Part shown: in pieces, positions 7,632-23,928 of the stretch
Numbering within the stretch: the stretch's first letter is position 1
Layout: each line of letters starts with the position of its first letter
From: Pseudomonadota bacterium
Lineage (GTDB): Bacteria; Pseudomonadota; Gammaproteobacteria; Steroidobacterales; Woeseiaceae
Assembly: GCA_039814545.1 (NCBI GenBank)
Contig: JBCCBB010000004.1
Location: 994-64,993, forward strand
Length of the DNA stretch: 64,000 bases
Direction: 5' to 3'
Made by a program: the position numbers and the translations under genes
Notes under the pieces: model-generated
The model's input: the letters and a program-made list of their open reading frames with translations, nothing else
Database searches by the model: none
What the model was told of the DNA's origin: nothing

Positions 7632-9386
7632 TCAGCTCACCGCTTTCAACGCATCAAGAATCTTTAGCTGCGCCTCGCGCAGCCGATTGGGCACGCGTGC
7701 GCCGAAGGCATCGAGGTATTCACCGACGGCCGCAATCTCGGCGTCCCATCCGGCCCTATCGACATCCAGGAGTGTCTCGAGCGCACCCGGCGCCATCTCG
7801 AGATCTTGGGCATCGATGTCTGCGGCGTGCGGGAGGTGGCCGATCGCTGTGTCACGCGCCTCGAGCTGACCTTCGCAACGGCCGATGATCCAGCGCAGGA
7901 CGCGCAGGTTCTCGCCAAAGCCAGGCCAGAGGAATCGCCCCTCACTGTCCTGGCGGAACCAGTTGACGTGAAAGACGCGAGGCAACGCATCGGAGCGCTC
8001 GGCGAAGGACAACCAGTGCGCCCAGTAGTCGGCGAAGTTGTAGCCGCAAAAAGGCTTCATCGCCATCGGATCGCGGCGCACCACACCCACGGCGCCCGTG
8101 GCCGCAGCCGTCGTCTCAGACGCCACGCCCGCCGCCACCATGACGCCGTGGTGCCAATCCTTGGCCTCGAAGACGAGTGGCGCGAGCTGCTTGCGCCGCC
8201 CGCCAAATACAATGGCCGAGATGGGCACGCCGTCGGGCGCTTCGGCCAATTCGCTGTACACAGGGTTTGCCGTGGCGCGCACCGTGAAGCGTGCATTGGG
8301 ATGCGCCGCAGGTCCGTCGCCCGAATAAGGGTTGCCGCGCCAGTCAGTCGCCGGCGTGCCTTCGCCCTTGTCTTCCCACCAGGGGCAGTTGTCCTCGGTT
8401 AGGGCGACATTGGTGAAAATGGTGTCGCTGCGAATCGTGTCGAAGGCGTTCTTGTTGGTCTTCTCGTTCGTGCCCGGAACGACACCAAAGTAGCCCGCCT
8501 CGGGATTGATCGCGCGCAATTGGCCGGCATCGTCGAGGTGCAGCCAGGCGATGTCATCACCCAGCGTCCAGATCTTCCAGCCCGGCTGCGACGCCGGCGG
8601 TATCAGCATGGCCAGATTGGTCTTGCCGCAGGCAGACGGAAAGGCGCAGGCCAGGTAATGGGTGTCGCCCGCCGGGCTCTGCACGCCGACGATCAGCATG
8701 TGCTCCGCGAGCCAGCCTTCCTGGCGCGCCTGCCAGCTGGCAATACGCAGCGCGTGGCACTTCTTGCCGAGCAGCGCGTTGCCGCCGTAGCCCGAGCCGT
8801 AGCTCTTGATTTCGAGCGATTCGGGGAAGTGCATGATGAACCGCTGATCGGGGTCCAGCGTGCCGGTTGAGTGCAGACCCTTCACGTAGTCGCCGTCGCG
8901 CTCAATGCGCGCTAACGCGGCATCGCCCATCCGGGTCATGAGTTTCATGTTGACGACCACGTAGGGGCTGTCCGTGATCTCGACGCCGCAGCGGGCGTAG
9001 GGCGAATCGATCGGCCCCATGCAGTAGGGCACGACGTACATCGTTCGCCCTCGCATGGCGCCATCGAACAACGCGTCGATTTTGGCGTGCGCGGCCTCAG
9101 GTGCCATCCAGTTGTTGTTCGGACCGGCATCGTCTTCTTCGCTCGTGCAGACGAAGGTCAGGTGTTCGACGCGAGCCACATCGTCGGGGTCCGAACGGTG
9201 CAGGTAGCAGCCTGGGTATCGGTCCTGGTTCAGCGGTAGCAGGGTGCCGTCGTCGGTCATCTGGGCGACGAGCCGGTCGTATTCGGCGTCGCTGCCATCA
9301 CACCAGACAATGCGGTCAGGCTGGGTGCGCGCGGCAACTGCATCGACCCAGGTATTTAGGTCCTGCAATCGGCTGTGTTGGGGCAT
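7632..9386 (-). CDS. pckG: Phosphoenolpyruvate carboxykinase (GTP)
   Basis: The ORF opens at 9470, but the likely start is ATG 9386 (MPQHSRLQDLNTW). The GTP-PEPCK kinase-1a loop FPSACGKTNLAM is present, and the length (about 584 aa) and overall sequence fit the GTP type. Confidence 0.9.
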   Translation of the reverse strand: MPQHSRLQDLNTWVDAVAARTQPDRIVWCDGSDAEYDRLVAQMTDDGTLLPLNQDRYPGCYLHRSDPDDVARVEHLTFVCTSEEDDAGPNNNWMAPEAAHAKIDALFDGAMRGRTMYVVPYCMGPIDSPYARCGVEITDSPYVVVNMKLMTRMGDAALARIERDGDYVKGLHSTGTLDPDQRFIMHFPESLEIKSYGSGYGGNALLGKKCHALRIASWQARQEGWLAEHMLIVGVQSPAGDTHYLACAFPSACGKTNLAMLIPPASQPGWKIWTLGDDIAWLHLDDAGQLRAINPEAGYFGVVPGTNEKTNKNAFDTIRSDTIFTNVALTEDNCPWWEDKGEGTPATDWRGNPYSGDGPAAHPNARFTVRATANPVYSELAEAPDGVPISAIVFGGRRKQLAPLVFEAKDWHHGVMVAAGVASETTAAATGAVGVVRRDPMAMKPFCGYNFADYWAHWLSFAERSDALPRVFHVNWFRQDSEGRFLWPGFGENLRVLRWIIGRCEGQLEARDTAIGHLPHAADIDAQDLEMAPGALETLLDVDRAGWDAEIAAVGEYLDAFGARVPNRLREAQLKILDALKAVS

Positions 9387-9468
9387 GGTTTCGCGGTCTT
9401 TTGTCGGGGTCGCGATTATAGACCAGCGCCAATGCACGATGGTGATGTCAGCGCTGTCAATCGTAAGC

Positions 9469-9507
9469 AAAAAAAAACGCTGACACCCCGGGGGGGAGGT
9501 GTCAGCG
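9469..9507 (-). terminator. Rho-independent terminator of the phasin-like gene
   Basis: The minus strand reads GCTGACACC-TCCCCCCCGG-GGTGTCAGCG followed by T9. This is a 9-10 bp GC-rich stem plus a U-run, about 75 nt after the stop at 9583. Confidence 0.75.
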
Positions 9508-9527
9508 TCAGGTTGCGCTGGCCGTCA

Positions 9528-9539
9528 GGGGGGGGGGGG
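9528..9539. repeat. Homopolymeric G12 tract (C12 on the phasin mRNA 3'-UTR)
   Basis: Read directly: 12 consecutive G between the phasin stop and its terminator. A G7 run lies at about 9490-9496, inside the terminator loop. Confidence 0.9.
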
Positions 9540-9582
9540 AGAGATGGCCAGTGTTGGGTAACCTCAGGGGGAGAGGTTGAGA

Positions 9583-10146
9583 TCAGGCAGCCGTTACCGA
9601 CTCCGTGACCTCTACTACCTTTTTCGCAGCCGTCTTAGCGGCCGTTTTTGCTTTCGTTTTAGCTTTTTTTGCGGGAGCCTTGCGTGCGGTCTTTTTGGCA
9701 GCCGTTTTCGCACGCTTGGGTGCGGCGGGCTTGCCGATGCCGGACACAACGCCAGTGACGTCCGTCGCAGCGCTACGAACGAGGTCGAAGGCTTCGCGGA
9801 TGTCAGTGATGTAGCCGCGAACGACCTTCGGCATCGTGTCGCGCTGGTAGGCCAGCAGCGAACCAACCGATTCAGCGCGGGCAGCGGCGTCAAAGCCACC
9901 AGCCAGTGCGTCGAGGCTGCCCTGGACGCTCTTGGTCTGCAGCTCGATCAGGTCTTTCGACAGGCGGAAACCGATACCGTTGACGTCAATGCTGGCCTTG
10001 GAAAGCTTGGCGACGGGCTTCTTGCCCGTTGCGATGGCTTTGCCAGCCTGGCCAACGCGTTCCTGCGTGGCGTCAACAGCGGTGTTCATGGTTGTACGGG
10101 CCGAGTCGGCGACGCGCGTCAGCGCAGTTTCGATCTGTTCTTTCAC
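9583..10146 (-). CDS. Phasin-like (PHA granule-associated) protein with Lys/Ala-rich histone-H1-like C-terminal tail
   Basis: The ORF opens at 10191. The likely start is GTG 10146, preceded by GAGGG. The N-terminal region looks helical (VKEQIETALTRVADSARTT..LLAYQRDTMPKVV). The tail is KPAAPKRAKTAAKKTARKAPAKKAKTKAKTAAKTAAKK, as in PhaF/AlgP-type proteins. Confidence 0.55.
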   Translation of the reverse strand: MKEQIETALTRVADSARTTMNTAVDATQERVGQAGKAIATGKKPVAKLSKASIDVNGIGFRLSKDLIELQTKSVQGSLDALAGGFDAAARAESVGSLLAYQRDTMPKVVRGYITDIREAFDLVRSAATDVTGVVSGIGKPAAPKRAKTAAKKTARKAPAKKAKTKAKTAAKTAAKKVVEVTESVTAA

Positions 10147-10442
10147 GGTGAGAACCCTCAATGGTGCGGTGCAACAAATGTTGCAGCGCACAATATGGCA
10201 GCGTCATGGTGCTGTCAACCTTTTTTCGGTAAGTTTTCGTCTTGAGTTCGTCCGGCGCACGGCAGCGTCCCGGAATCCTTAAGCACTGCTTAGCCAGAAT
10301 GAGACCTGGTTCACACAGAGGTCGTGAATACGCTCACAGATTCGCGGTCGTAACACCCTGATCCATAGGCTTTAGCGTCCCGCTCAGGGACAATCTTATG
10401 GTGAAACCGGGGTGTGCCCGGAAATCGGGACGAAGCAGGCTT

Positions 10443-11447
10443 ATGACAATCAGAAACGGCGTGTGCGCGACAGGGACGAGGCGCTTTCTCGCCTCCATCA
10501 TTCTGGCCATGCTGTCAGCAGGGGCCGGTGCCGCCGGCACGCTGGCAGGCACAGACATCGCCAATACGGCCAGTGTCAGCTACGAGCTCGACGGCAACCC
10601 GGTCACCCAGGACTCGAACACGGTCACGATCAGTGTCGCCGAGATTCTCGACGTCACGGTGGTACTCGTCAGCCCGCAGCAGTCCGTGAGCCCCGGCGAT
10701 ACTGCGCAGGCACTCGTCTTTACGGTGACCAACACGGGCAACGGCCAGGAATCGTTCGGGCTCAGCGTTGACAATGCGCTGGCCGGTGACGATTTCGACC
10801 CCATCGCCGCGAGCCCCAACATCTATTTCGACAGTGACGCGAGCGGCGACTTCAGCGCGGCTGACACGCCTTACGTACCGGGCAGCGGTGACCCCGACCT
10901 CGCGCCAGACGCTGCGATCACACTCATCGTCGTCAACGACGTTCCCACGGGTCTCGCCAACGGTGACCGCGGCACCAGTGCATTGATCGCCGTCGCTGCC
11001 ACGGGCAGTGGTGCGCCAGGCACGTTGTTCGCCGGCGCCGGCGCCGGTGGGGTCGACGCCGTGGCCGGCGCGAGCGGCGCCACCGCGACCGCGACGGGCG
11101 AATACCTCGTTTCCGACGTCGCGCTCGTCCTCAACAAAGTCGCCCTGGTGCTGGACCCGTTCGGCGGTGATCAGCCCGTACCCGGCGCCACGATTCGCTA
11201 CACGGTCACGGCCGAAGTCACGGGAACCGGGACGGCCGTCGCGGTTGCCGTCGAAGATCAGATTCCGGCCAACACGAGCTATGTCCCAGGAAGCCTCGCG
11301 CTTAACGCGGCTGGCCTCAGCGATGCCGCCGATGCTGACGCGGGCGTGTACGAGGTGGCACCGACGCCGCTCGTGCGCGTGACGCTGGGCGACCTGGCTG
11401 CCGCCGACGGTGTGCAGACCATCACTTTTGAAGTACTCATCGACTGA
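10443..11447 (+). CDS. Secreted two-module DUF11-like (conserved-repeat, Ig-like) protein; putative fibre subunit A
   Basis: ATG 10443 (alternative ATG 10398). Signal peptide MTIRNGVCATGTRRFLASIILAMLSAGAGAAG. Module signatures: FTVTNTGNGQESF and PGATIRYTVTAEVTGTG..VEDQIPANTSYVPGS. It is a collinear paralogue of 12126-13235. Confidence 0.85.
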   Translation: MTIRNGVCATGTRRFLASIILAMLSAGAGAAGTLAGTDIANTASVSYELDGNPVTQDSNTVTISVAEILDVTVVLVSPQQSVSPGDTAQALVFTVTNTGNGQESFGLSVDNALAGDDFDPIAASPNIYFDSDASGDFSAADTPYVPGSGDPDLAPDAAITLIVVNDVPTGLANGDRGTSALIAVAATGSGAPGTLFAGAGAGGVDAVAGASGATATATGEYLVSDVALVLNKVALVLDPFGGDQPVPGATIRYTVTAEVTGTGTAVAVAVEDQIPANTSYVPGSLALNAAGLSDAADADAGVYEVAPTPLVRVTLGDLAAADGVQTITFEVLID

Positions 11448-11499
11448 CGCCACCAACGAAGTGGCGATGCAACTGACAGCATTTATTAAGGAGCGAAGC

Positions 11500-11985
11500 A
11501 TGAACCGAGCACTGACCCTACTGGCAGCCGTGCTCTCACTGAGCCTGGCGACACCCGCCCTGGCTCAGGAGGGCAAGATCGAACTCAAGAGCGTTGTTGA
11601 GAAAGAAGTACGTGTCGTCAATGATGCGGGCGAAGAGGTCGTGCAGCTCGTGACTGCCGACAAAGTCGTGCCCGGTGACGTGGTGATCTACACGGTCACC
11701 TACACGAATGTCGCCGAACAGGCCGTCGACAACGTCGTCATCACAAACCCCATCAACGATGCCTTGAGCTATGTCGTCGATTCCGCGTTTGCCCCGGGTG
11801 CCGACGTCAGCTTTTCCGTTGACGGTGGCGCCTCGTTCGACGCGCTCGAGGCACTGACTGTCGAACGCGAGGGCACCGCGATCGCCGCCGGTGTCGACGA
11901 TCTCACTCACATCCGCTGGATCCTGCGCGAGCCGCTAGATCCCGGTGCACAGGGCTTCGCCCGATTCCGCGCGCGCCTCAATTAG
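11500..11985 (+). CDS. Secreted single-module DUF11-like protein; putative fibre subunit B (cap candidate)
   Basis: ATG 11500 with AAGGAG 6 nt upstream; the track ORF opens at 11410. Signal peptide MNRALTLLAAVLSLSLATPALA. Module signature: VVPGDVVIYTVTYTNVAEQAVDNVVITNPINDALSYVVDS. Confidence 0.85.
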   Translation: MNRALTLLAAVLSLSLATPALAQEGKIELKSVVEKEVRVVNDAGEEVVQLVTADKVVPGDVVIYTVTYTNVAEQAVDNVVITNPINDALSYVVDSAFAPGADVSFSVDGGASFDALEALTVEREGTAIAAGVDDLTHIRWILREPLDPGAQGFARFRARLN

Positions 11986-12125
11986 GCGCCGCCAGATTCG
12001 CCCGGTAAGGGACCACCGGGCTCAACGATAACAGGGACTTCCAGGCCGCTGCGCAGGGCGGCTTGGCGCATCCGAGCGACCTGCGCATTGGCAAGAGCAA
12101 ATTAATGCAAGACAGGAGAAGCGAA

Positions 12126-13235
12126 ATGACGCTTGCACGCACAACCCTGGGCCGTATAGCGGCCTCGGGACTCGTAGCGATCGCGTTGTCGTTCGCGGGG
12201 ACGGCACAAGCTGCCGGCACCGCGGCCGGGACCTCGATCGAAAACGTGGCTACCGTCGACTACGAAGTCGGCTCGATCGCACAGACGCCGATCGAATCGT
12301 CTCCGACGGGTAACTCCACCCCAGGTGTCAGCAACGGCACGGCAACGGCGTTCCTCGTCGATAACCGTGTCGATCTGACGCTGGTGGAGACCGACAGCGC
12401 GCCCACCCCGGTCAGCCCGGGACAGGCCGATGTCGTGGCTACATTCAGCCTGACCAACACCGGTAACGAGGCACAGGGCTACGCACTGGTCGCAGCCAAC
12501 CTCGCAGCCGGCGCCGTCGTTCACGGCAACACCGATGATCAGCAGGTCAACAACCTGCGGGCCTTCGCCGACACCGACGGCAGTGGCGACTTCTCGGGCG
12601 GTGACGCCCAGTTCGTCGACACGCTCGCGGCTGACGGCAACATCCTCGTGTTCGTCGTTGCTGACGTGCCGATCGGTGTCGTTAATGGTGAGTTCGCCAA
12701 CGTCAGCATGACCGCAACGACTGCGGTTTCGGGCACGAGCGGCGCGACGATTGTCACGGAAACCACGGGCGGCAACACCGCCGGTGTTGACGTCGTGTTT
12801 GCCGATGCTGGCAATGATGGTCTCGAGACGGCCGAAGACGGCTTTGCCGTATCGTCGGCTGCCCTCACTGTGACCAAGGCGGATGCGATCATCAGTGATC
12901 CGATCAACGGCACTACGGACCCGCTGTACATTCCGGGTGCGGTCGTTGAGTACACGATCACGATCGTGAACACGGGTACCGCCGACGCCGAACAGGTCAG
13001 CGTTACGGACGTCATCGATGGCGACCTGACCCTGGCTCTGGGCGAATACGGCGGCGGCGCCGATATCGAGTTTGACCTCGGTGGCGCCACAACGGGCTGC
13101 ACGGCGAACAACGCCGACGCGGACCCCTGTGGCCTCACGGGTTCGACGCTCGAAGCCGACGTGAATGCGACGCTGGGTACCAACCCGGGTGTCGACGACA
13201 CGCTGGTGGTGCGTTTCCGCGTGACCATCAACTGA
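12126..13235 (+). CDS. Secreted two-module DUF11-like protein; putative fibre subunit C (paralogue of A)
   Basis: ATG 12126 with AGGAG 8 nt upstream; the track ORF opens at 12063. Signal peptide MTLARTTLGRIAASGLVAIALSFAGTAQA. Module signatures: FSLTNTGNEAQGY and PGAVVEYTITIVNTGTADAEQVSVTDVI. One Cys pair (CTANNADADPC) is present. Confidence 0.85.
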   Translation: MTLARTTLGRIAASGLVAIALSFAGTAQAAGTAAGTSIENVATVDYEVGSIAQTPIESSPTGNSTPGVSNGTATAFLVDNRVDLTLVETDSAPTPVSPGQADVVATFSLTNTGNEAQGYALVAANLAAGAVVHGNTDDQQVNNLRAFADTDGSGDFSGGDAQFVDTLAADGNILVFVVADVPIGVVNGEFANVSMTATTAVSGTSGATIVTETTGGNTAGVDVVFADAGNDGLETAEDGFAVSSAALTVTKADAIISDPINGTTDPLYIPGAVVEYTITIVNTGTADAEQVSVTDVIDGDLTLALGEYGGGADIEFDLGGATTGCTANNADADPCGLTGSTLEADVNATLGTNPGVDDTLVVRFRVTIN

Positions 13236-13261
13236 CGGTAGTTGCGGAGACGCTGACGCCC

Positions 13262-16200
13262 ATGAGCGAGCGCATCGCTGCTCTTGCACTGCGCGCCGTG
13301 GCCGGGAAACCGGCCGCGGCGCGCGGGCGTTTGTGTGTCCGCCGCCGTCGTGCCGTGCGAGTGGCTCCGGGGTACGTTCGACGTGCCCCGGCGCTTCTTC
13401 GCAGTGCGGTGTTGGTGCTGGCCGGTGTCTTCGGCTTTGCACTGACCGCTGTCGCGGCGACGCCACCCGGTACCCAGATCGACAACCAGGCACGGGCGCT
13501 GTTCCAGACCGACGCGGGCACGCCCGTCACGGTGCTCAGCAATACGGCCAGTGTGATCACCGTTTTTGGTCGCACGCCTTCGCAGGCGACCTTCACACGA
13601 CTCGCTGCGGGCACCGTGAGCCGCAGCGAAACCATCGGTCCCGTGCAGTGTGCACTCAACGGGACGTTTACTCCCTTGCCTGCACCACTTGACGGCGCGG
13701 GCCAGCCGATCGACCTGACCGCCCCGCAAACCGTGGCGGACACGGGCATCTTCAACACCGACGAGACCGCGTTTGTGCGTCTCGATGACGGTGACCAAAA
13801 CCTCAATGGGCTCTTGCGTGAGACGGTGACCGTGACCGTCAGCAACGCCCCGGGCGGTGACAGCGAGACGCTGACGCTGACCGAAACGGGCAATAACACG
13901 GGTGTGTTCACGGGTTACGTACCACTTGCCGAGGCGACGCCTTCAGCGGGCAACTGCGTACTTGAGACGACGCCCGACAGTACGCTGTCCATCAGCTACG
14001 CCGACCCGGCGGACAACACGGACGCGAGCCAGGCGCTGGCGCTTGTGGAGCCGCTTTCGATCGTGTTCGACGCCAGCACGGGCCAGCCTGTCGACGGCGC
14101 GACGATCACGCTTGTCGATGCGGCCACGGGGCAGCCCGCGACCGTGTTCGGCAACGACGGCGTTAGCACGTACCCGGCGACGGTAGTCAGCGGCGCACCC
14201 GCGACCGATGCTGCCGGTGTGGTCTACAACGTGCCGGCTGGCGGCTACCGCTTCCCGGTCCTGCCCGCGGGCGACTACCGCCTGCAGATCGTGCCGCCGG
14301 CGCAGTTCATCGCACCGTCCAACCGGAGTGTTGCCGAACTCAACACGTTGCCGGGTGCGCCGTTCGATCTGGCAACGGCTTCATTCGGCGGTGACTTCAC
14401 GCAAGTCGTCGATGGCGCGGGCGATCTCGTTGACGTCCCGCTCGATCCCTTTGACGGCGGCCTGTTCCTGTCCAAACGCACCACGACGGCCGTAGCCGGC
14501 GTGGGCGACTTCGTTCGCTACGAACTCGGTCTGACCAACGCATCAGAACGTGTCGCTGCGACGGGCATCACCGTCAGTGATGTGCCGCCGCAGGGCTTCC
14601 GCTATGTGGCTGGTTCGGCGCGGCTCAATGGCAACGTCATTTCCGATCCCGTCTTCGCTGATGCGACGGGTAGTTCGTTCACGTTTACCTTGCCCGATCT
14701 GCCCGCGGCAGCATCGGCAACGCTGGCTTACGTCATGGAAATTACGCCGGGTGCTCGAGGGCGTCAGGCTATCAACATCGCTTCTGCGCGCGCGGACCGT
14801 GGCGTTGCCTCTAACGAAGCGCAGGTATCGATTCGCCTGCGTGAAGACCTGTTCCGGAGCACGAGTGTGCTCGTCGGCCGCGTGGTGGAGGGCAACTGCA
14901 CCGACGAGACGTTTACCGAGTCGCAGGGTGTTGCCGGCGTGCGCGTCTTCCTCGAGGACGGTCGATTCGCGGTCACCGATTACGGCGGTCGTTACCATCT
15001 CGAAGGTCTGACGCCGGGCCGACGTGTGGCGCAGCTCGACGACACCACCGTGCCGGAATGGTTAGAGCTGGTCCCCTGCGACGCGGCACCGCGCTTCGGC
15101 GGTCGGGCGGACTCGCAATTGGTTGACCTGAAACCGGGTCTGTTGCATCGGGCCGACTTCTACCTCAAGCGGCGCGCACCGGATACGGGTGCGGTTTCGC
15201 TTGAGCTCGTCAACGAGAGCGGCAACTCGCCCGACACGATCGATTACAAGCTCGAGCTAACCGGTGACGGCAATGTCTCGGTCGAAGGTCTGAGTGCCAC
15301 GGTGCTGCTGCCCAAGTCGGCCTCGCTTGTACCCGGCACGGCGCGCCTCAACGGCCAACTGCTGCCGAGCCCGCGCCAGACAGGCAATGCCGTCGTGTTC
15401 GTGATTGGCGAGCGTGCGGGCGGCTGGCGCGACCGCATTACGTTCTCGGCCAGGATCGATGCCCTCTACGCCGGTGAGCTCGTGAGCCGCGCTGTGGCCA
15501 ACTTCAATACGCCCGCGACAGGCAACCAACGTACGCCAGTTGGCGAGGCGAGGATGCTACGCGAGGCGGCCACGACAGAAAACGCGGAGTACGTGCTGTC
15601 GCTGAACTTCGACGTGTTGTCTGCTGAGTTGTCCGCCAATGACCGCGAGACGCTGGACGCGCTCATCGATACCTGGCGCGGCGTCTATGACATCCGCCTC
15701 GCAGCGGTGGGGCACTCGGACGCTGATCGTATTGCCGCTCGCAACAGACACGTGTTTGCGGACAACTACGCTCTGTCCGAGGCGCGCGCTGCGTCTGCCG
15801 CACGCTACCTGGCCAGCGCACTCAATGTCGATTCGAAGGCAATCGAGGTGCGTGGCTTCGGCCCCGACCGTCCTGTGGCCAGCAACGATACGGCCGACGG
15901 CAAGCGCCGCAACCGGCGCGTGGAACTCGTCATGAGCGGCACGCGACCCGGTCGTCAGTCGGTCGTCGAGGTCACGCAGGCCGCCAGCGGCGTGCAGCGG
16001 GTCGACACAACGGGCGCCACGCCGGGCCCTGAGACGGCATCGCGAAACGCGCTCGACGAAAAAATTGCGCGCGTGACGGCGGCGAGTGACGAAGCCGTGA
16101 TGGTTGCAGCGCCGGGCGTCGAGGCATTGGGCAGCGCGCATGGCTTTGTCGCACCAGCCGCCGACTACCAGCCGCCGATTCCCAGCTTGACCGTCGCAGT

Positions 16201-19200
16201 GGCGCACGCCGGTGACAGCCGCGTCGAGCTGTCGCTCAACGGGGCGCCCGTCAGCAACCTTAACTTCGATGGCACCGAGCGCAGCGCCGACAAACAGCAT
16301 GCGCTGAGCAGCTGGCGCGGTGTCGACCTTGCCGATGGCGACAACACGCTGATTGCGACCGTGGTGGATGCCAACGGCGTGGTGTTGGCCACGCACCGAC
16401 GTGCCGTGCATTACGCCGGACAGCCCATTCGCGGTGAGCTCGTCGCCAAGGAATCCCGACTTACTGCCAACGGCCGCCAGCGGCCCGTGATCGGTGTACG
16501 TCTGCTCGACGCGGATGGCCAGCCGGCGCGTGCGGGCTCGATCGGCAGCTTCCGCGTTCGTGCCCCGTACCGCTCTTGGTTCGAGGTGTCGCGGGAGCGC
16601 GAGAACCGGCTTGTTGAGGTCGGCGACCGCCGGCCGCTCTACCGCGTTGGCGAAGACGGCATCGCCTACCTGGAGCTCGAGCCCACGACGCGCGCGGGTG
16701 AAGTGATTGTTGATCTTGAATTCGAGAACGGTCGCCAGCAGGAATTGCGCACCTACCTTGCGCCGGCGCCACGCGACTGGATTCTGGTCGGCTTTGCCGA
16801 GGGCACCGTTGGCTACAACACGCTGCGCGATAACGTTAACGCGGCAGACGCTGCCGGTTTCGAGGACGATGTCTACACGGACGGCCGCGTGGCGTTCTTC
16901 GCCAAGGGCCGGATCAAGGGTGACGCGCTGCTGACGCTGGCCTACGACACCCGCGGCAATGCCGTGGACCGCGATGGTTTCGGCACCGAGGTCGATCCGG
17001 ACGCCTTCTTTACGCTCTACGGTGATGGCACCGAGACGCGCTTTGAGGCGGCCAGCCAGCGCAAGCTTTACATCAAGCTCGAGCGCCAACAGTTCTCCGC
17101 CCTGTTCGGTGACTTCGACACGGGGCTGTCGGTCACGGAGCTTGCCCGCTATGAGCGCCGCTTTAACGGGCTGCAGGTGCAGTACTTCGGCAATCGTTTC
17201 ACCGTTAACGCCTTTGCGGCCGAGAGCGATCAGTCATTCCAGCGCGACGACATCCCCGGCGACGGCACCTCGGGTCTGTACCGGCTCTCCGGTCAGGACA
17301 TTGTCGTCAACTCTGACGCCGTGCGTATCGAGACGCGTGACCGCTTCGACGCGTCGGTCGTGATCGCGAGCGAGCGCCTGACGCGTTTCCTCGATTACGA
17401 CATCGACTACATCAACGGCACCTTGTTCTTCAAGCGGCCTGTGCCGAGCCGTGACCAGGACTTCAACCCGCTGGTCATCGTCGCAGAGTACGAATCGCGC
17501 GATGCGGCGGAAGACGACACGATTGCGGGTGGCCGTGCCTCGATCAAGGCGCTCGACGGCGCGCTTGAAGTCGGTGTCACGGCGGTCCACGAAAACAATG
17601 CCGTGGACGCCAACGCGCTCTACGGCGTCGATCTCGCCTGGCAAATCGACAACGCGACGCGACTCACGGCCGAGTACGCCGACACCGACCGCAATGACGT
17701 CAGCGCCACGACCTCTGGCTACGCCTACAAGATCGAGCTTGAGCGCGCGACGGGCTCCCTCGATGCGCGGCTTCACCACCGCCTGTCGGACTCGAATTTC
17801 GGGCTGGGTGCGCAAGCCGCGAACCAGCTCGGTATTGAGGCGACCGGTCTGGATGTGCGCTGGCAGCACGCCGAGCGCTGGTTCAGCCAGATGTCGCTGG
17901 GCCACCAGGAGAACCTGGATACGGGCGCTGAGCGCCAGCGCGCCGAAGCCGAAGTGCGCTACCAGGATTCACGCAACACGGCGTTTACGGGGCTCGCCTT
18001 TGTCAGCGACGAGGCGGCCGATGGCACGGAGCGCGAGTCGTCTCTGGCGCGCGCTGGTGTTGGACGCAGCTTCTTCGGTGACCGCATCACGCTGCGCCTG
18101 TCGACGGAGCAGGCCATCGACACCGATGAGAGCATCGACTACCCGTCGCGTACGCTCGTAGGACTCGACTGGAAGCTGGCGCAGGCCACGCTGTTTGCTG
18201 AGCACGAGGTGGCGAGCGGGGAGAGTATTGATGCGCAAACCTCTCGCGTCGGTCTGCGTGCGACGCCCTGGCAGCGCGCCCAGTTCCTGACCACGCTCGA
18301 CAACCAGGTCACCGAGTTTGGCCCGCGTTTGTTCGCCAACATCGGCTTTATCCAGGGCATACAGATTGGTGAGCGCTGGACCCTCGACGTCGGTGTCGAC
18401 CACAGCAACACGATTATCGACGAGCAGAGTGCGCAGGTCTTTGATCCCGATCGCGAGCTCGTATCAGGCAGCCTGCGCGCCGACTTCGTCGCGGCATTCG
18501 CGGGAGCGCTATACCAGTCTGATAACTGGTCGGCCAATGCGCGCTACGAACGCCGGTCGGCCGATGACGAGGACCGCGACACAGTGTTGTTTGGCTGGTT
18601 CCGTGAGCCCGTCGCAGGTCACGGCCTGTCGGCAGGCTTGCAATACTTCAACAGCGACCGCGCTGACCGCGGCGAGCGACGCGCGGACCTGCGGTTTGGC
18701 TGGGCGTATCGCAAGGCCGATCGCCGCTGGGCGTTCCTCGACCGGCTGGATCTCGTGCTCGATGAGGGCGACGGTTTGGGCGGCGAGCGCCGCAGCATGC
18801 GCTTCATCAACAACTTTAACGCGGTGCGCCGCATCGGCGCGGCCGGTGAGCTGTCGTTGCAGTACGCGTTCAAGTACGTCGACAGTGAGTTCGATGGTGT
18901 CGGCTACTCGGGCTACACCGACCTGGCCGGCGTCGACTATCGCCGCAGCTTCCGCGCGCGCTGGGACTGGGGCATACACGGCTCGGCGATGACGTCGTAC
19001 GAGTCGGGTGTGACGGACTATGGCGTAGGTGTCGATGTTGGGTTCAACCCCCGCGACAACCTCTGGCTGACGCTCGGCTACAACTTCTCTGGCTTCCGCG
19101 ACGAGGACTTCGACGACGCACGCTACACGGCGGCGGGTCCCTATCTGCGTGTCACGGTAAAAGCTGATCAGCACACGCTTAACCGCATCACGGGCAGGAT

Positions 19201-19216
19201 TCGCGGCGACCGCTAA
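13262..19216 (+). CDS. Giant (1984 aa) multidomain outer-membrane protein: Ig-like/Cna-B-like/DUF11-like modules, internal OmpA-like domain, very large C-terminal beta-rich (barrel-like) region
   Basis: Alternative GTG starts at 13355 and 13361. Signal-like segment [22 protein letters not shown]. Cna-B/CarboxypepD_reg-like: [20 protein letters not shown] and [25 protein letters not shown]. DUF11-like: [27 protein letters not shown]. OmpA-like: [21 protein letters not shown] (nt ~15587-15940). Invasin-Big-like: [24 protein letters not shown]. About 820 aa of amphipathic strand-like sequence follows, from nt ~16760. Confidence 0.85.
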   Translation: [1984 protein letters not shown]

Positions 19217-19243
19217 CGCCCGGGGCGCGGTATAGTGCGCGCC

Positions 19244-21169
19244 ATGACCGACCTCGACGACCTGCTGGCCAGTGATGGCGCCGTCGCGCGCGCCATTCCC
19301 GGCTATCAGCCGCGCCTGTCGCAGCGTCTTATGGCCGAAGCCGTCGATGTGGCCATGGCCAGCCGGGAACACCTCGTGGTCGAGGCGGGCACCGGCACGG
19401 GCAAGACGTTCGCCTACCTATTGCCCGCGCTCGTCGCCGGGCGTCGCACCATCATCTCCACAGGCACTCGCGCGCTGCAGGACCAGCTTTTTCACCGCGA
19501 CCTGCCCATGATCGCTGCGGCCGTCGGCCGACCCGTGAAGACGGCCTTGCTCAAGGGGCGCGCGAACTATCTGTGCCTGCACCGGCTCGACCAAGCCCTG
19601 ACGGATGCGGCGGCGCTGACCGGAAAGGAAGCGCGGGTTCTTTCCGAGTGGCGTGACATGACCCGGCGCGGCGACCGTGCTGAGGTAACGCAAATTCCCG
19701 AGGACGCGTCGGTGTGGCCGCGGGTGACCTCAACGGCCGACAATTGTCTTGGCCAGAAGTGCGCGTTCTACGAGGACTGCTACGTCGCACAGGCGCGTCG
19801 CGATGCGCAACGCGCTGACCTCGTGGTTGTTAACCACCACCTGTTACTGGCCGACCTGGCGTTTCGCGAGACGGGCTTTGTTGAGTTTCTGCCTGACGCC
19901 GACGCCGTGATTATTGATGAGGCGCACCAGTTGCCCGACACGGCGCTGCAGTTTTTTGGCGTCAGTCTGTCCACGCGGCAGTGCATCGATCTGTTTGATG
20001 AGCTCGAGGTCGACACGGCAGGGATTGGCGGGCCGCCGCTCGACGAGGCTATGCGGCGCGCCCGTAAGGCAGTGCTCGACTTGCGCGAGCAGGCGCCGGC
20101 CGACAGTGGCCGCTACGAGTTGGCCAACCTCGCCGGTGCCATCACGGCGCCGTTGTCCGAGTTCTCGGCGGCGCTCTCTGCGCTTCTGGAAGTGCTCGAC
20201 GGCATCGGTGTCGATGCGTCTGATGCGCTCGTGGATCGCGTGGTCAGGCTTGTGGACCGCCTTGGCATCATCGTCAACGACGACGACCTCGATGGTCTGC
20301 GCTGGGTCGAAGTGTCGCGCCGCAGCGTGCGTCTCAACATGACACCGCTCGACGTATCCGTGCGACTGCGCGCTGCCATGGACGCCACGGAGACGGCCTG
20401 GGTGTTCACCTCGGCAACACTCGCGGTCGGCGAGGACTTCTCGCACTTTACGAATCGCGTCGGGGTTGATGACGCGCGATGCCTGCGATTCGAATCGCCC
20501 TTCGATCTGGCGCGCAATGCGCGCGTGCTCGTGCCGCGCGATTTGCCGGCGCCCAACGAGCGCGGCTTCATGGGGACCTTGCTCGAAAGGACCGCACCAT
20601 TGCTCGCCGCGACAGCCGGCGGTGCGTTCTTCTTGCACACAAGCTATCGCGCGTTGGCTGAAAGCGCGGCGTGGTTCTCGTCGCGACCGGCCGTGCTCGG
20701 CGATCGGGCGTTGTACGTGCAGGGCGATGCCCCGCGCGACAAGTTATTGCAGGCGTTTCGTGCGGAGGGCAACGCCGTGTTGCTGGGCACGGGAACCTTT
20801 TGGGAAGGCGTTGACGTGCGCGGCCCGGCCCTGACGCTCGTGGTCATCGACAAGCTGCCCTTCGCGGCGCCTGATGACCCGATGCTCGTGGCACGCAGTG
20901 CCTGGTTGCGTGCCAACGGCCGTAACCCGTTTCGCGACTACCAGTTGCCGCAGGCGGTACTCGCGCTCAAGCAGGGCGTGGGGCGGCTGCTTCGGGACAC
21001 GGCCGACTACGGTGTGGTCGTGCTCGGAGATCAGCGACTGCACGGCAAGTCCTACGGACGCCTGTTTCTCGATGCGGTTCAGCCCATGCCAGTCGTCGAT
21101 GACCTGGCCGCGGCCGAGGCGTTTCTTGCGGCGCGCGAAGGTGCGGACAGCGAACGCGTGGCGTCGTAA
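19244..21169 (+). CDS. yoaA: ATP-dependent DNA helicase, DinG/Rad3 family, YoaA-like
   Basis: I chose ATG 19244 (MTDLDDLLASDGAVARAIPGYQPR..) because it mirrors the E. coli YoaA N-terminus; the track start is GTG 19235. Walker A is EAGTGTGKTFAYLLP, the DEAH box is IIDEAHQL, and the Fe-S cysteines are CLH..CLGQKCAFYEDC. Confidence 0.85.
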   Translation: MTDLDDLLASDGAVARAIPGYQPRLSQRLMAEAVDVAMASREHLVVEAGTGTGKTFAYLLPALVAGRRTIISTGTRALQDQLFHRDLPMIAAAVGRPVKTALLKGRANYLCLHRLDQALTDAAALTGKEARVLSEWRDMTRRGDRAEVTQIPEDASVWPRVTSTADNCLGQKCAFYEDCYVAQARRDAQRADLVVVNHHLLLADLAFRETGFVEFLPDADAVIIDEAHQLPDTALQFFGVSLSTRQCIDLFDELEVDTAGIGGPPLDEAMRRARKAVLDLREQAPADSGRYELANLAGAITAPLSEFSAALSALLEVLDGIGVDASDALVDRVVRLVDRLGIIVNDDDLDGLRWVEVSRRSVRLNMTPLDVSVRLRAAMDATETAWVFTSATLAVGEDFSHFTNRVGVDDARCLRFESPFDLARNARVLVPRDLPAPNERGFMGTLLERTAPLLAATAGGAFFLHTSYRALAESAAWFSSRPAVLGDRALYVQGDAPRDKLLQAFRAEGNAVLLGTGTFWEGVDVRGPALTLVVIDKLPFAAPDDPMLVARSAWLRANGRNPFRDYQLPQAVLALKQGVGRLLRDTADYGVVVLGDQRLHGKSYGRLFLDAVQPMPVVDDLAAAEAFLAAREGADSERVAS

Positions 21170-21171
21170 CG

Positions 21172-21852
21172 ATGAAACCCTTGCTGGCCATAGAGACTTC
21201 GACCGTCGCCTGTTCGGTGGCGGTGGGCGGTGCTGAAGGCACAGCACTGCAGGAACGGCACGAGCCAGGCGCGCACGCGAGCCATATTATGGCCATGATC
21301 GACACGGCGCTCGAGGATGGCGGTATCGAGATGAACGCCCTGGGTGGCATCGTCTACGGTCAGGGGCCGGGCTCATTCACCGGTGTACGGATTGCCGTTG
21401 CCCTGGCGCAGGGTCTTGCCGCGGGTCTGTCGGTGCCAGTGCTGGGTGTCTCAAGCCTTGCGGTACTGGCACAGGTGGCCGTGGCTGCGAACCCGGGGCG
21501 GGCGCTGCTTGTCGTGCAGGACGCGCGAATGGGCGAGGTCTACGCCGGTACCTACGCGCCCAATGTCGCGGGCATCGTTCGCGCAACAGGTGCGGACCGT
21601 CTGCTTGAACCTGATGCTGTGACCGCGCTCAAAGACGGCGTCGTACTGGGCGGTGCCTTGCAATCCATGCCGGCGCTTGCGGCGCGGCTTGAAGATTGCG
21701 GCATGATGACAGCCCCGGAGCTTATGTTGCCCTCAGCGCGCGAATTGCTCGTTCTGGCGCGTGCGGCCGGCGACACGGGCTGGACGCCAGCGGCAAACGC
21801 GGCCGCGGTGTACCTGCGTCAGCAGGTGGCTACAGCCAAGCCGGCCGGATGA
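21172..21852 (+). CDS. tsaB: tRNA threonylcarbamoyladenosine biosynthesis protein TsaB
   Basis: LLAIETSTVACSVAV at the N-terminus and GPGSFTGVRIAVALAQGLA are typical of TsaB/YeaZ. Length is 226 aa. Confidence 0.85.
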   Translation: MKPLLAIETSTVACSVAVGGAEGTALQERHEPGAHASHIMAMIDTALEDGGIEMNALGGIVYGQGPGSFTGVRIAVALAQGLAAGLSVPVLGVSSLAVLAQVAVAANPGRALLVVQDARMGEVYAGTYAPNVAGIVRATGADRLLEPDAVTALKDGVVLGGALQSMPALAARLEDCGMMTAPELMLPSARELLVLARAAGDTGWTPAANAAAVYLRQQVATAKPAG

Positions 21853-21861
21853 TTCCGGCTG

Positions 21862-21879
21862 CTGTAACATCGGTGTAAC
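21862..21879 (+). promoter_or_regulatory. Pho-box-like direct repeat upstream of phoB
   Basis: CTGTAAC-ATCG-GTGTAAC is two 7-bp repeats with 11-bp periodicity, close to the consensus CTGTCAT-N4-CTGTCAT. It sits about 40 nt upstream of the phoB ATG, and a TGTAAT follows at about 21890. Confidence 0.55.
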
Positions 21880-21919
21880 GTCATATCGTTGTAATACCGG
21901 CGTCAATGGTGTCCGAGCC

Positions 21920-22618
21920 ATGAAGATGAGCGGACCACGCATCCTAATTGTTGAAGACGAAGCAGCCATCAGTGACATGGTGGCGTTTCATTTGTCGCGT
22001 TCCGGTTACGACGTCGTGCAAGCGGCGGACTGTGAGACGGCGCGCGCCAAGCTCGCCGACCAGGGCGCCGATCTCGCCATCGTCGACTGGATGCTGCCCG
22101 ACATGAGTGGCCTGGAACTCGTGCGGTCTCTGCAGCGTGATCCGCAGTACGAAGATCTCGCCATCATCATGCTGACGGCGCGTGCCGATGAGCAGGACAA
22201 AGTGCGTGGCCTCGACAGCGGGGCCGACGACTACATGACCAAGCCTTTCAGCTCGCGCGAGCTCTTGTCGCGCATTCAGGCTGTGCTGCGTCGTTCGGCG
22301 CCTGCTGCGGGCGAGCAACATACGGCCGGACCGCTCACGATCGACGCCGTCGGTCACCGCGTGTTCGCAGGCGACGCCGAAGTGTCGCTCGGGCCCAAGG
22401 AATATCGGCTGCTCAAGTATCTGGTGACCCACCCCGAGCGTGTCTACAGCCGCGCCCAACTGCTGGACCGGGTCTGGGGAGCCAACGTCTACGTTGAGGA
22501 GCGCACGGTCGACGTGCACATCCGCCGCCTGCGAAAAGCGTTGGAGCCCTACGAGGCGGACGGCTGCATTCAAACGGTTCGCGGCGCCGGCTACCGGTTC
22601 TCGGCCCGGAGCGACTGA
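21920..22618 (+). CDS. phoB: Phosphate regulon response regulator PhoB
   Basis: ATG 21920 (MKMSGPRILIVEDEAAI); the track ORF opens at 21761. Receiver motifs are DLAIVDWMLPDMSG and DDYMTKPF. The OmpR/PhoB winged-helix tail is VDVHIRRLRKAL..IQTVRGAGYRF. Confidence 0.9.
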   Translation: MKMSGPRILIVEDEAAISDMVAFHLSRSGYDVVQAADCETARAKLADQGADLAIVDWMLPDMSGLELVRSLQRDPQYEDLAIIMLTARADEQDKVRGLDSGADDYMTKPFSSRELLSRIQAVLRRSAPAAGEQHTAGPLTIDAVGHRVFAGDAEVSLGPKEYRLLKYLVTHPERVYSRAQLLDRVWGANVYVEERTVDVHIRRLRKALEPYEADGCIQTVRGAGYRFSARSD

Positions 22619-23928
22619 TGCCTGGCGCCTGGCGCAGTGTATTGCTGATCGTCGCCGGGACGATGGCTGCCGGACTCGGTGTAGGTGCCATTGTCGGCTT
22701 TCCCGTCGAGGGGCTCGCAATCGCGCTGGCCACGTTACTCGGCTACAACCTGTACCGACTGCTCGACCTTGAGCGCAGCCTACGGCTGCGTGAACGTGTT
22801 GAAGTACCTGAGGGCAATGGTGTGTGGTCCCGCGTGCTCGCAGGCGTGCGTTACCAGCAACAACGCGTACGCCGCCACAAACGGCGCGCGCGCGAAGTGA
22901 TGCGCGAAGTGCGCCAGTCGACCAACGCGTTGCCGGACGGCGTCATCGTGCTCACGCAGGAAAACGAGATTCAGCGTTATAACGCGGCGGCGCGCATGAT
23001 GCTCGGTCTGCGACGGCGTCGAGACCGGGGTCAGCGTGTTGATCATCTCGTGCGCCACCCGAACTTTGTGACCTACCTGTCAGCTGATGACTACGCGTTG
23101 CCTGTGACCATCCCATCGCCTGTGCGCGACGGGGGCTGGTTGAGCCTACGGCTTGTGCCCTACAGCGACGAAGGCCGTCTGCTCACCGTGCGCGACATCA
23201 CCGAGCGCACGCGCCTGACCCGCATGCGCCGCGACTTTGTGGCCAATGCTTCACATGAGTTGCGCACGCCGTTGACCGTGATTTCGGGCTATCTCGATGC
23301 GATGCGCGACGATCCGGATCTGGCGGCAGAGTGGGAAAAACCGCTCGAGGAAATGGGCCAGCAGGCCAACCGGATGCGGCAGATGCTCGACGAGCTGTTG
23401 GCTTTGTCACGTCTCGAGGCCAGCGCCACGGCACCGGCCGATAAGATCGTCGACATGCCCGGCGTGATTCGTGAGTGCGCCGCGTTGTTCGAAGGTGAGG
23501 ATATGGCTGTTGAGCTTGAGGTTTCGTCGCACGCCAATGTGCTCGGAGAATACGGAGAGCTCATATCCGTGGTCAGCAACCTACTCAGCAATGCCCATCG
23601 CTACGGCGGTGGGGATGCGCCGGTTGTCGTGCGCTGGTTCAACACGGAAACAGGCGCCGAACTCGTCGTTGAGGATCGTGGCGAGGGTATTGCGCCTGAA
23701 GACATTCCGCGACTCACGGAGCGCTTTTACCGCGTCAATCGGGGGCGCGGCCGCGACTCGGGCGGGGTGGGTCTGGGACTCGCCATCGTCAAGCACGCGC
23801 TCGCGCGCCACGATGCCGCGCTGAAGATCGACAGCACGCTTGGAGAAGGCAGCGCCTTCCGCTGCCTGTTCCCAACGTCACGACTGGCCGGTCCTGAGGC
23901 ACTACAGGCTGTGGGCGGCGAGCGCTGA
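22618..23928 (+). CDS. phoR: Phosphate regulon sensor histidine kinase PhoR
   Basis: The ATG overlaps the phoB stop (ATGA). H-box FVANASHELRTPLTVI, N-box LLSNAHRY, G-box DRGEGI..GGVGLGLAIVKH. One N-terminal membrane hairpin is present. Confidence 0.88.
   Translation: MPGAWRSVLLIVAGTMAAGLGVGAIVGFPVEGLAIALATLLGYNLYRLLDLERSLRLRERVEVPEGNGVWSRVLAGVRYQQQRVRRHKRRAREVMREVRQSTNALPDGVIVLTQENEIQRYNAAARMMLGLRRRRDRGQRVDHLVRHPNFVTYLSADDYALPVTIPSPVRDGGWLSLRLVPYSDEGRLLTVRDITERTRLTRMRRDFVANASHELRTPLTVISGYLDAMRDDPDLAAEWEKPLEEMGQQANRMRQMLDELLALSRLEASATAPADKIVDMPGVIRECAALFEGEDMAVELEVSSHANVLGEYGELISVVSNLLSNAHRYGGGDAPVVVRWFNTETGAELVVEDRGEGIAPEDIPRLTERFYRVNRGRGRDSGGVGLGLAIVKHALARHDAALKIDSTLGEGSAFRCLFPTSRLAGPEALQAVGGER

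Follow-up and report, generated by a model that had tools for sequence, protein, structure and literature searches.

A predicted giant outer-membrane barrel with a pilin-like stalk, encoded behind three small secreted CLIPPER-type proteins, as a possible base of a surface fiber system in Woeseiaceae

Ushers of chaperone-usher pili have a barrel of 24 strands, with a plug between strands 6 and 7, and periplasmic N- and C-terminal domains. Isopeptide-bonded stalks of cell-surface proteins are built from the CLIPPER (DUF11) domain, the bond of which involves a triad of Asn, Lys, and Asp, and a CLIPPER adhesin of Acinetobacter also bears an OmpA-like anchor (PMC12617251). In the archaeal threads formed by Sulfolobus Saci_0406, donor-strand complementation and intermolecular isopeptide bonds yield fibers without a chaperone (PMC9715654). 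For single-chain barrels larger than the usher, a superfamily with 38 and 40 strands was predicted from sequence and contact maps by Solan et al. in 2021, the main text of which gives no function, operon, or domain context for them (PMC8346858). Here, gene G and the three genes preceding it (A, B, and C) are analyzed in a 64,000-nucleotide stretch of a Woeseiaceae genome (GenBank assembly GCA_039814545.1, contig JBCCBB010000004.1, positions 994 to 64,993 of the forward strand; hereafter the window, in whose numbering all positions are given). The interpretation preferred here, held tentatively and at somewhat less than even confidence, is that G forms the outer-membrane base of an uncharacterized surface fiber or adhesin system encoded by A-B-C-G.

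The three small genes, all encoding secreted DUF11-type proteins, lie directly upstream of G on the same strand, and three such genes precede G at every related locus that contains upstream DNA. Loci of the A-B-C-G type occur in close relatives, in a cadherin-bearing variant from Pseudomonadales, and in Sulfuriferula, an uncultured betaproteobacterium, Sphingorhabdus, and Desulfosudis oleivorans Hxd3 (L001); the gene order differs in Azotimanducaceae (L013 and L017), where two C-like genes are followed by B and G. That the open reading frame (ORF) of G arose by chance is ruled out by the 305 full-length relatives that were scored and by the 3,198 cluster representatives (50% identity) that its barrel region matches, with 1,252 of these matches below 1e-30. 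The matched barrel is always C-terminal, in proteins of ~1,600-3,000 residues; stand-alone barrel homologs were considered and rejected, the short matches being contig-truncated fragments. Family members are found in Woeseiaceae-like Gammaproteobacteria, Beta- and Alphaproteobacteria, Desulfobacterota, and Nitrospirota, with relatives in Sideroxyarcus and Sulfuriferula as well. The sfz/sfb "stalk formation" cluster of iron oxidizers was rejected as a counterpart, as it is an exopolysaccharide cluster containing no DUF11 or OmpA genes. In databases, the proteins carry only the names "OmpA family protein" or "TIGR01451 repeat protein", and a full-text literature search returned no paper on the G family or the A-B-C-G operon.

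Module content across the family was judged from pairwise coordinates and precomputed Pfam lists. The OmpA-like module is missing from 28 of the 120 closest relatives of G and is thus optional rather than a constant part of the family, so that the label "OmpA family protein" used in databases captures a single module that not all members have. Some relatives also lack the second DUF11-like module, and others have ~1,100 extra residues with cadherin repeats inserted after the N-terminal motif; these cadherin-extended proteins have ~2,000 residues of Ig-like modules ahead of the barrel, with the hairpin motif still at the extreme mature N terminus. The two Ig-like domains that precede the barrel are retained in OmpA-less relatives and therefore belong to the conserved family core, which consists of the N-terminal stalk, these two domains, and the barrel with its insert. 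The original prediction, made for G from the DNA sequence, did not include the large family, the optional nature of the OmpA module, or the position of G as the fourth gene after A, B, and C, and this operon context changes the likely function. The features of the locus are collected in Table 1.

Table 1. Features of the A-B-C-G locus in window coordinates (AF2, AlphaFold2; pLDDT, predicted local distance difference test score)
Feature	Residues	Positions	Strand	Remarks
Gene A	349-aa ORF	10398..11447	+	Secreted two-domain DUF11/CLIPPER protein; relatives ~325-340 aa
Gene B	161 aa	11500..11985	+	Secreted single DUF11-like domain
Gene C		12063..13235	+	Paralog of A, 32% identity, E 2e-20; same hairpin motif and same truncated C-terminal DUF11
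Gene G ORF	1984 aa	13262..19216	+	Length as called mechanically
GC-rich stem-loop, 17 bp, then GCGTTTGTGT		13289..13326	+	Between the C stop and the probable G start, inside the mechanically called 5' end of G
G mature N terminus	66-100	13457..13561	+	Hairpin motif ATPPGT.I.N.A...SN.V..V, same as in A and C
G N-domain	101-265	13562..14056	+	Beta-rich; AF2 pLDDT 85-95, conserved columns
G pilin-like stalk	266-770	14057..15571	+	CnaB-like 1, DUF11/CLIPPER 1, CnaB/SdrD_B-like 2, DUF11-like 2; AF2 pLDDT ~90
G OmpA-like domain	775-895	15584..15946	+	PF00691, NCBIfam, PDB, AF2 alpha/beta fold
Linker after OmpA module	896-955	15947..16126	+	Poorly conserved; pLDDT 45-66
Two Ig-like beta-sandwiches just before the barrel	956-1165	16127..16756	+	AF2 pLDDT 85-91
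First part of barrel region	1166-1324	16757..17233	+	~4-8 strands; alternating hydrophobicity
Conserved small all-beta insert	~1325-1402	17234..17467	+	Conserved motif includes SRD; AF2 short strands, pLDDT ~70-79
Main barrel wall	1403-1966	17468..19159	+	Predicted 30 consecutive long strands with short turns (AF2 DSSP); pLDDT mostly 80-94

Pfam, profile, and AF2 evidence all support the order of domains along G that had originally been described. A signal peptide is followed, as proposed there, by an N-terminal region of ~200 residues (here the N-domain, residues ~66-265). Signal-peptide cleavage is likely to fall between AVA and ATPPGT (residues 65/66), with mature G beginning at residue 66. 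In the hairpin at this mature N terminus, the strands of which are modeled at pLDDT ~78-81, Asn75 is conserved in 148 of 152 sequences, and the hairpin co-varies in cis with a strand of its own N-domain (residues 188-195; 91 with 194, z 9.0). The N-domain has conserved Cys130 and Cys232, near-invariant D176, D178, and N180 in a DxDxN motif resembling a calcium site, and no invariant Lys able to pair with the hairpin Asn75 in cis.

The stalk that follows is assembled from modules of pilin and adhesin type. The first CnaB-like module gave a CarboxypepD_reg match at residues 268-343 (E 2.5e-7, in a search of the N-terminal half of G), the first DUF11/CLIPPER module a full-profile match above the Pfam cut-off at residues 403-523 (E 1e-11), and the second CnaB-like module a weak SdrD_B match at residues 553-587. 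The Pfam match of the second DUF11-like module (residues ~650-770) is faint; it is matched by the profile of the first DUF11 with an independent E-value of 1.3e-7. An AF2 model of residues 60-960, with a mean pLDDT of 88.8, consists of a succession of beta domains and then an alpha/beta OmpA fold. Its top PDB matches in Foldseek include the sortase pilins BcpA, SpaD, EbpB, EbpC, and LrpA, plus SdrD, and the same model also matches other multi-Ig proteins, namely integrin ectodomains and alpha-2-macroglobulins.

The OmpA-like motif set, previously called canonical, is matched by PF00691 at residues 783-885 (E 1.7e-11, 44.8 bits versus a curated cut-off of 27.2), by many NCBIfam OmpA-like models, and by 41 OmpA-like chains in the PDB (e.g., 6jfw, E 4.9e-11). 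The motifs GHSD, LSEARA, and NRRVEL are visible in the translation, the first two also in the family consensus; we take the Asp of GH[ST]D and the Arg of LS..RA to contact diaminopimelate, as in structures of A. baumannii OmpA and Pal. Judged by its sequence, the domain is canonical and predicted to bind peptidoglycan. The linker behind it contains a single ~26-residue helix (residues 923-948, positions 16028-16105) modeled by AF2 with low confidence (pLDDT ~60); this helix is long enough to cross a membrane or a pore and is absent from OmpA-less relatives. Of the invasin- or Big-like modules said to come next, the beta-sandwich fold stands, and the family assignment is not supported, as the Big_1 and Invasin_D3 matches are not significant (E 0.04-0.1, far below the cut-offs).

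The C-terminal half of G was modeled by AF2 from a 38-sequence alignment (pLDDT 74.7; predicted template modeling score 0.63). In this model, the amphipathic-strand region that had been placed from nt ~16760 onward contains 30 long strands at residues 1403-1966, resembles giant barrels in Foldseek, and closes with the motif GYNF.GF.D.DF...Y...GP.L...K.DQ. The whole barrel region amounts to ~820 residues and is split by a conserved beta domain of ~75 residues. This domain corresponds to the interrupting non-barrel segment of the original prediction (nt ~17238-17497) and is a small all-beta conserved domain at residues ~1325-1402. No other part of the C-terminal half is as strongly conserved or has so dense a run of invariant columns, and the hairpins of the insert are backed by covariation (1356 with 1369 and 1374 with 1389). 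The insert is a candidate plug, gate, or clamp; the analogy with an usher plug that had been drawn for it finds no support from homology. A strand count by AlphaFold, proposed at the time as a check, succeeded for the 30 strands after the insert and gave only a range of four to eight before it, where confidence is low at residues 1171-1269; hydrophobic alternation there extends to up to eight strands. The barrel is thereby predicted, by our own estimate, to have ~34-38 strands in total, which would place it among the largest predicted outer-membrane barrels.

Covariation in the barrel region, assessed by a reduced-alphabet mean-field analysis of 256 sequences, backs several of the hairpins modeled by AF2. 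The strongest signal is a nonlocal antiparallel pairing of residues 1166-1175, which comprise the linker and the first strand, with residues 1268-1277 (z 14.7), bracketing a stretch of ~85 residues that AF2 leaves unmodeled. Because of this pairing, the low-confidence segment (~1186-1267) probably loops out between two strands that pair with each other. Foldseek comparison of the C-terminal half with the PDB retrieved only large outer-membrane barrels, at template modeling (TM) scores of 0.14-0.21: SlpA (30 strands, E 5e-9, TM 0.21), SprA (36 strands), MtrB, LptD, and TonB-dependent transporters. Among the comparisons suggested originally, SprA and LptD were thus found within that range of TM scores, and PapC, FimD, BamA, and TamA were not among the top 50 matches. 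Residues 940-1984 of G are covered by no Pfam family, neither Pfam nor NCBIfam has a match to the barrel, usher models gave no match to the C-terminal half even at E<=10, and a profile of the barrel region had no match in all PDB sequences. These results agree with the earlier statement that neither classical nor inverse autotransporters have this order or barrel size (no Pfam match; 30+ strands), and no usher, LptD, SprA, or BamA family fits the architecture either.

The products of A, B, and C have Sec-type signal peptides and show no lipobox, no known C-terminal sorting signal, and no LPXTG, so that the adjacent barrel is the obvious, if inferred, export route. All three finish right after a beta-strand (..FEVLID, ..FRARLN, and ..FRVTIN, respectively). 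Protein A is laid out as a signal peptide, a hairpin (residues ~47-80; motif GT.I.N.A.V.Y...SN.V..V), domain 1, a Gly/Ala-rich linker, and a C-terminal DUF11 domain that ends two strands early. Just past the signal cleavage site, A, C, and G have a common N-terminal element in all lineages examined, which reads (A)GT.(A)GT.I.N.A.V.Y ... SN.V..V in A and C and ATPPGT.I.N.A in G. This hairpin motif is not present in B, which also has "ITNP" in place of the D.IP of A and C and a first-strand Lys that is not conserved. The mechanically called ORF of B (from 11410, 191 residues) overlaps the end of A; its 2,321 relatives, all annotated as "hypothetical", are uniformly ~158-170 residues long, which identifies ATG 11500 as the real start.

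Profile alignment with hhalign places the C-terminal domain of A on columns 19-103 of the 138 in the complete DUF11 profile (probability 98.3, E 1.3e-14), the last residue of A falling at column 103, and that of C on columns 18-102 (probability 95.4). By these alignments, both domains lack the final ~35 residues, or two strands, of a full DUF11. For B, only columns 16-69 were aligned (probability 95.6), which does not demonstrate a truncation of the kind seen in A and C. In 128 sequences of the A family, the hairpin has Asn56 in 127 and Asn74 in 124, and the C-terminal domain has Lys247, in its first strand, in 125 and Asp287, in the D.IP motif, in all 128. The residue types of the CLIPPER triad are therefore divided in A and C, the C-terminal domain bearing Lys and Asp and the N-terminal hairpin bearing Asn. 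The hairpin of A co-varies with the C-terminal domain (73 with 284, z 9.3; also 68 with 345 and 64 with 324), as does the start of domain 1 (84 with 328, z 9.1). The split invariant residues and the covariation between hairpin and C-terminal domain suggest that a single CLIPPER-like domain is made up from both ends of A, within or between chains.

Under the preferred interpretation, the barrel of G would sit in the outer membrane as both anchor and conduit, its wide lumen letting the N-terminal stalk of the same chain out to the cell surface. In proteins that have an OmpA module, the polypeptide would descend from the rim of the barrel by way of the two Ig-like domains and the linker, make its periplasmic U-turn at the peptidoglycan-bound module, and ascend through the lumen; the module would remain under the membrane and clamp the assembly to peptidoglycan. 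The conserved insert would seal the lumen, an otherwise large hole, or hold the stalk in it. A and C, possibly with B, would also leave by this conduit and then either be joined to the stalk or lengthen it. The A/C hairpin with its invariant Asn would complete the C-terminal CLIPPER domain, in which Lys and Asp are kept and the last two strands are missing, within or between chains, and completion between chains would give a head-to-tail, possibly isopeptide-linked, fiber. The stalk is placed outside because CnaB and CLIPPER modules are typical of mechanically loaded extracellular stalks, and because the ~2,000-residue Ig-like rod of the cadherin-extended relatives is, by our estimate, too long for the periplasm. 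Two further reasons are that the Sec signals of A, B, and C come with no other sorting signal and that the neighboring barrel is the sole conserved candidate for a conduit. In the original prediction, the domain order had been presented as a topological puzzle, with the stalk either outside or part of a periplasm-spanning structure. The order itself was confirmed, the puzzle turns out to center on an optional module, and the cadherin-extended relatives favor the outside alternative.

Several points weigh against this interpretation. OmpA-like domains and multi-Ig proteins can be wholly periplasmic. The linkers from the stalk to the OmpA module are only a few residues long, so that a folded domain must occupy the lumen. 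AF2 performs poorly on residues 1171-1269 (pLDDT 33-45), neither covariation nor AF2 revealed the contact that would close the barrel, and the covariation analyses overall draw on few sequences (effective number 66-231) in a reduced alphabet. For strand completion, comparison of the A/C/G hairpin with the last DUF11 strands by hidden Markov models gave a score of ~0; the best hhalign match does lie at the terminal DUF11 columns and beats seven control domains, only at P 0.012-0.036, which is not significant. Moreover, CLIPPER_2 variants with seven strands are known (PMC12617251), and the C-terminal domains of A and C, although short, might therefore need no completion. The hairpin of G co-varies with its own N-domain, which weakens the notion of G as a pure trans donor and means that A and C, too, may generally be completed in cis. 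An argument that cis completion of the A domain is sterically impossible was withdrawn, since side-by-side packing allows it and domain 1 co-varies with domain 2.

The same observations on A and C bear on a more specific proposal, namely that A-B-C-G represents a new pilus class of diderm bacteria, a chaperone-free, barrel-rooted polymer of A and C joined head to tail, which is conceivable and at present doubtful. The hairpin of one subunit would complete the truncated CLIPPER domain of the next, and its Asn would form an intermolecular isopeptide bond with the acceptor Lys, as in a natural split-domain "tag/catcher". B, with an acceptor domain and no hairpin, would cap the fiber or chaperone free hairpins. 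A plug-gated barrel of ~34-38 strands would export the fiber and root it on its pilin-like stalk, the barrel being bolted to peptidoglycan by the OmpA module in many members.

The shared hairpin motif would take on another meaning if G were a dedicated translocon with an usher- or SprA-like function, its whole N-terminal region remaining in the periplasm as a scaffold for handling and for anchorage to peptidoglycan. The exported cargo would then be A, B, and C, with the motif as a recognition signal; B, being without the motif, could be a periplasmic chaperone. Such a role would suit the periplasmic location of OmpA-like domains, the short linkers throughout the N-terminal region, the conserved insert after the first few strands, broadly at the position of the usher plug, and the conserved operon of cargo-like proteins with Sec signals. 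It is nonetheless unlikely: CLIPPER and CnaB modules are the hallmark of stalks outside the cell, the cadherin-extended relatives would have to fit ~2,000 residues of Ig-like modules in the periplasm, G itself bears the N-terminal motif of its presumed cargo, and there is no homology to ushers or SprA.

Absence of the OmpA module from about one-quarter of close relatives implies that tethering cannot be the core function, which makes it quite improbable that G is a structural envelope connector, i.e., a peptidoglycan-tethered giant porin-like barrel of the SlpA/OmpM or OmpA kind, with A, B, and C forming a periplasmic scaffold under the outer membrane. This explanation draws on the best structural match of the C-terminal half, the 30-stranded outer-membrane/cell-wall connector SlpA (E 5e-9), on the canonical OmpA-like domain, and on a core housekeeping neighborhood that is conserved in relatives. 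The TM score to SlpA is, however, only 0.21, with neither an SLH domain nor a coiled coil in G; the family includes adhesin-type cadherin extensions, and a tether needs no three extra secreted proteins.

Least probable of all is that the C-terminal 820 residues are not one giant barrel and instead form a small barrel before the insert and a ~30-strand barrel, or a partly soluble beta domain: the low AF2 confidence at residues 1171-1269, the non-meander pairing of 1166-1175 with 1268-1277, the undetected closing contact, and chains with several barrels, as described in the main text of Solan et al. (PMC8346858), speak for it, whereas 30 consecutive long strands predicted at pLDDT 80-94, the single 38- and 40-strand barrels predicted from contact maps in that text, and too few clear pre-insert strands for a separate barrel of at least eight once the excursion is discounted speak against it.

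With respect to gene structure, the ATG at 13262 is probably too far upstream, and the true start of G is likely to be codon 32 or 34 (GTG). This is indicated by the 17-bp stem-loop within the called 5' end and by the G ortholog of L008 (67% identity), in which a short, ordinary signal peptide immediately precedes ATPPGT. The 151-nt segment around the stem-loop (13225-13375) folds far better than shuffled sequences (z = -7.2), and the stem-loop is kept in the close relatives L006, L007, and L011, with one C>T change that preserves pairing as G-U; it is absent at L008. It may act as an intra-operon attenuator or an mRNA-stabilizing hairpin that sets the subunit-to-barrel ratio.

Within the window, the remainder is housekeeping (BamA, DnaE, GlnD, PyrG, and Pst) and of uniform composition, which marks the operon as a resident chromosomal feature and not an island. 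At L003, which was compared with window positions 7632-23928, G is 44% identical and its operon occupies the same slot, with PEPCK (minus strand) upstream and YoaA helicase, TsaB, PhoB, and PhoR downstream. The L003 protein has no OmpA module, and the module was thus gained or lost without the operon moving. Between PEPCK and the operon, the window contains a phasin-like ORF (9583-10191, minus strand; Phasin_2, E 3.8e-6) with a Lys/Ala-rich, histone-like C-terminal tail. At some related loci, an extra, larger DUF11-type protein of 508-682 residues is encoded downstream of G (L001:14357-16195, L012:11520-13568, and L015:15365-16891), Desulfosudis oleivorans being among the relatives that have it. 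It shares the "..F.V.V" last strand of A, B, and C, has no GT.I.N.A motif, and may be an additional or tip component.

If G is indeed the base of a surface fiber or adhesin, the operon would define a surface-fiber route distinct from the chaperone-usher pathway, type V secretion, the type IV pilus, type I secretion system adhesins, and the type IX secretion system (T9SS), and this way of building and anchoring fibers would be widespread in environmental diderm bacteria. Were the new-pilus proposal to hold, it would amount to an unrecognized outer-membrane assembly pathway in thousands of environmental lineages. The barrel of G would be among the largest single-chain outer-membrane barrels, raising the questions of how the beta-barrel assembly machinery folds ~34-38 strands and how such a pore is sealed. 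The split CLIPPER arrangement of A and C, with Asn at one end and Lys and Asp at the other, could yield new protein-ligation tools. The current annotation as "OmpA family protein" hides both the family architecture and the operon.

Among described systems, chaperone-usher pili resemble A-B-C-G in combining small secreted Ig-like subunits and one large outer-membrane barrel in an operon, in a barrel broken early by a small beta domain, in subunits with an N-terminal strand element and a C-terminally incomplete fold, and in a subunit without the N-terminal element (B here, the tip adhesins there). In contrast to the 24 strands of ushers, however, the barrel of G has an estimated ~34-38, with no sequence or fold match to them; the insert follows ~4-8 strands, and no domain follows the barrel. 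G has a pilin-like N-terminal region of ~1,100 residues plus OmpA instead of the usher N- and C-terminal domains, and the A/C element is a two-strand hairpin with an invariant Asn rather than a single donor strand. No PapD-like chaperone gene accompanies A-B-C-G in the window or at any related locus, and A, B, and C match only DUF11-type families. Usher membership was therefore rejected, with no Pfam, NCBIfam, or PDB-profile match and the 50 best Foldseek matches including neither PapC nor FimD, leaving a functional analogy only.

Type Va and Ve autotransporters share with G a membrane barrel and a long string of adhesin-type domains in one chain; in type Va, the barrel, which has an alpha-helical linker in its pore, is likewise C-terminal, and intimin can likewise carry a peptidoglycan-binding module (LysM). 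Their 12 strands, however, amount to about one-third of the G barrel, and in G the peptidoglycan-binding module lies between the "passenger" and the barrel and three dedicated partner genes are present. Neither the Autotransporter (PF03797) nor the Inverse-AT barrel gave a Pfam match in G, the domain order of which is the reverse of the inverse autotransporter (LysM, 12-strand barrel, then a C-terminal Big-domain passenger). The SlpA/OmpM connectors, represented by Deinococcus SlpA (PDB 8ae1), are the best Foldseek match and also place a very large C-terminal barrel (28-30 strands) after a periplasmic cell-wall-binding module; the resemblance is confined to the barrel, and G differs in a TM score of only 0.21, no coiled coil, no SLH match in Pfam or NCBIfam, an optional wall module, and its additional pilin-like stalk and operon. 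SprA of the T9SS (36 strands) has a barrel of similar size with a lumen wide enough for folded cargo, yet no homology to G was found, and T9SS partners are missing, as are C-terminal sorting domains of the T9SS type on A, B, and C.

The same CnaA/CnaB-type stalk modules occur in sortase pili (BcpA, SpaD, and EbpB) and in CLIPPER-stalk adhesins (Acinetobacter B9T28_05395, PDB 9IFR), and the Acinetobacter adhesin shares the OmpA-like anchor as well. The placement of the conserved Lys, Asn, and Asp found here is similar to that in the isopeptide triad. In contrast to sortase pili and these adhesins, the locus described here has no LPXTG, no sortase in the window neighborhood, and a diderm host, the resemblance to pilins being confined to the stalk; the residues of the putative triad lie at opposite ends of A and C, and the anchor is a fused giant barrel. 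For A and C, the archaeal threads offer a precedent for the mechanism, trans complementation being only proposed here, in organisms without an outer membrane or a barrel partner. The strand number of the barrels in the main text of Solan et al., larger than any solved barrel, lies near the ~34-38 estimated for G. Overall, ushers and autotransporters come closest in their way of working, yet the system fails the defining features of both, and those of inverse autotransporters, SlpA/OmpM connectors, and sortase pili are not matched either; A-B-C-G is classed among the barrel-anchored surface adhesin or pilus systems.

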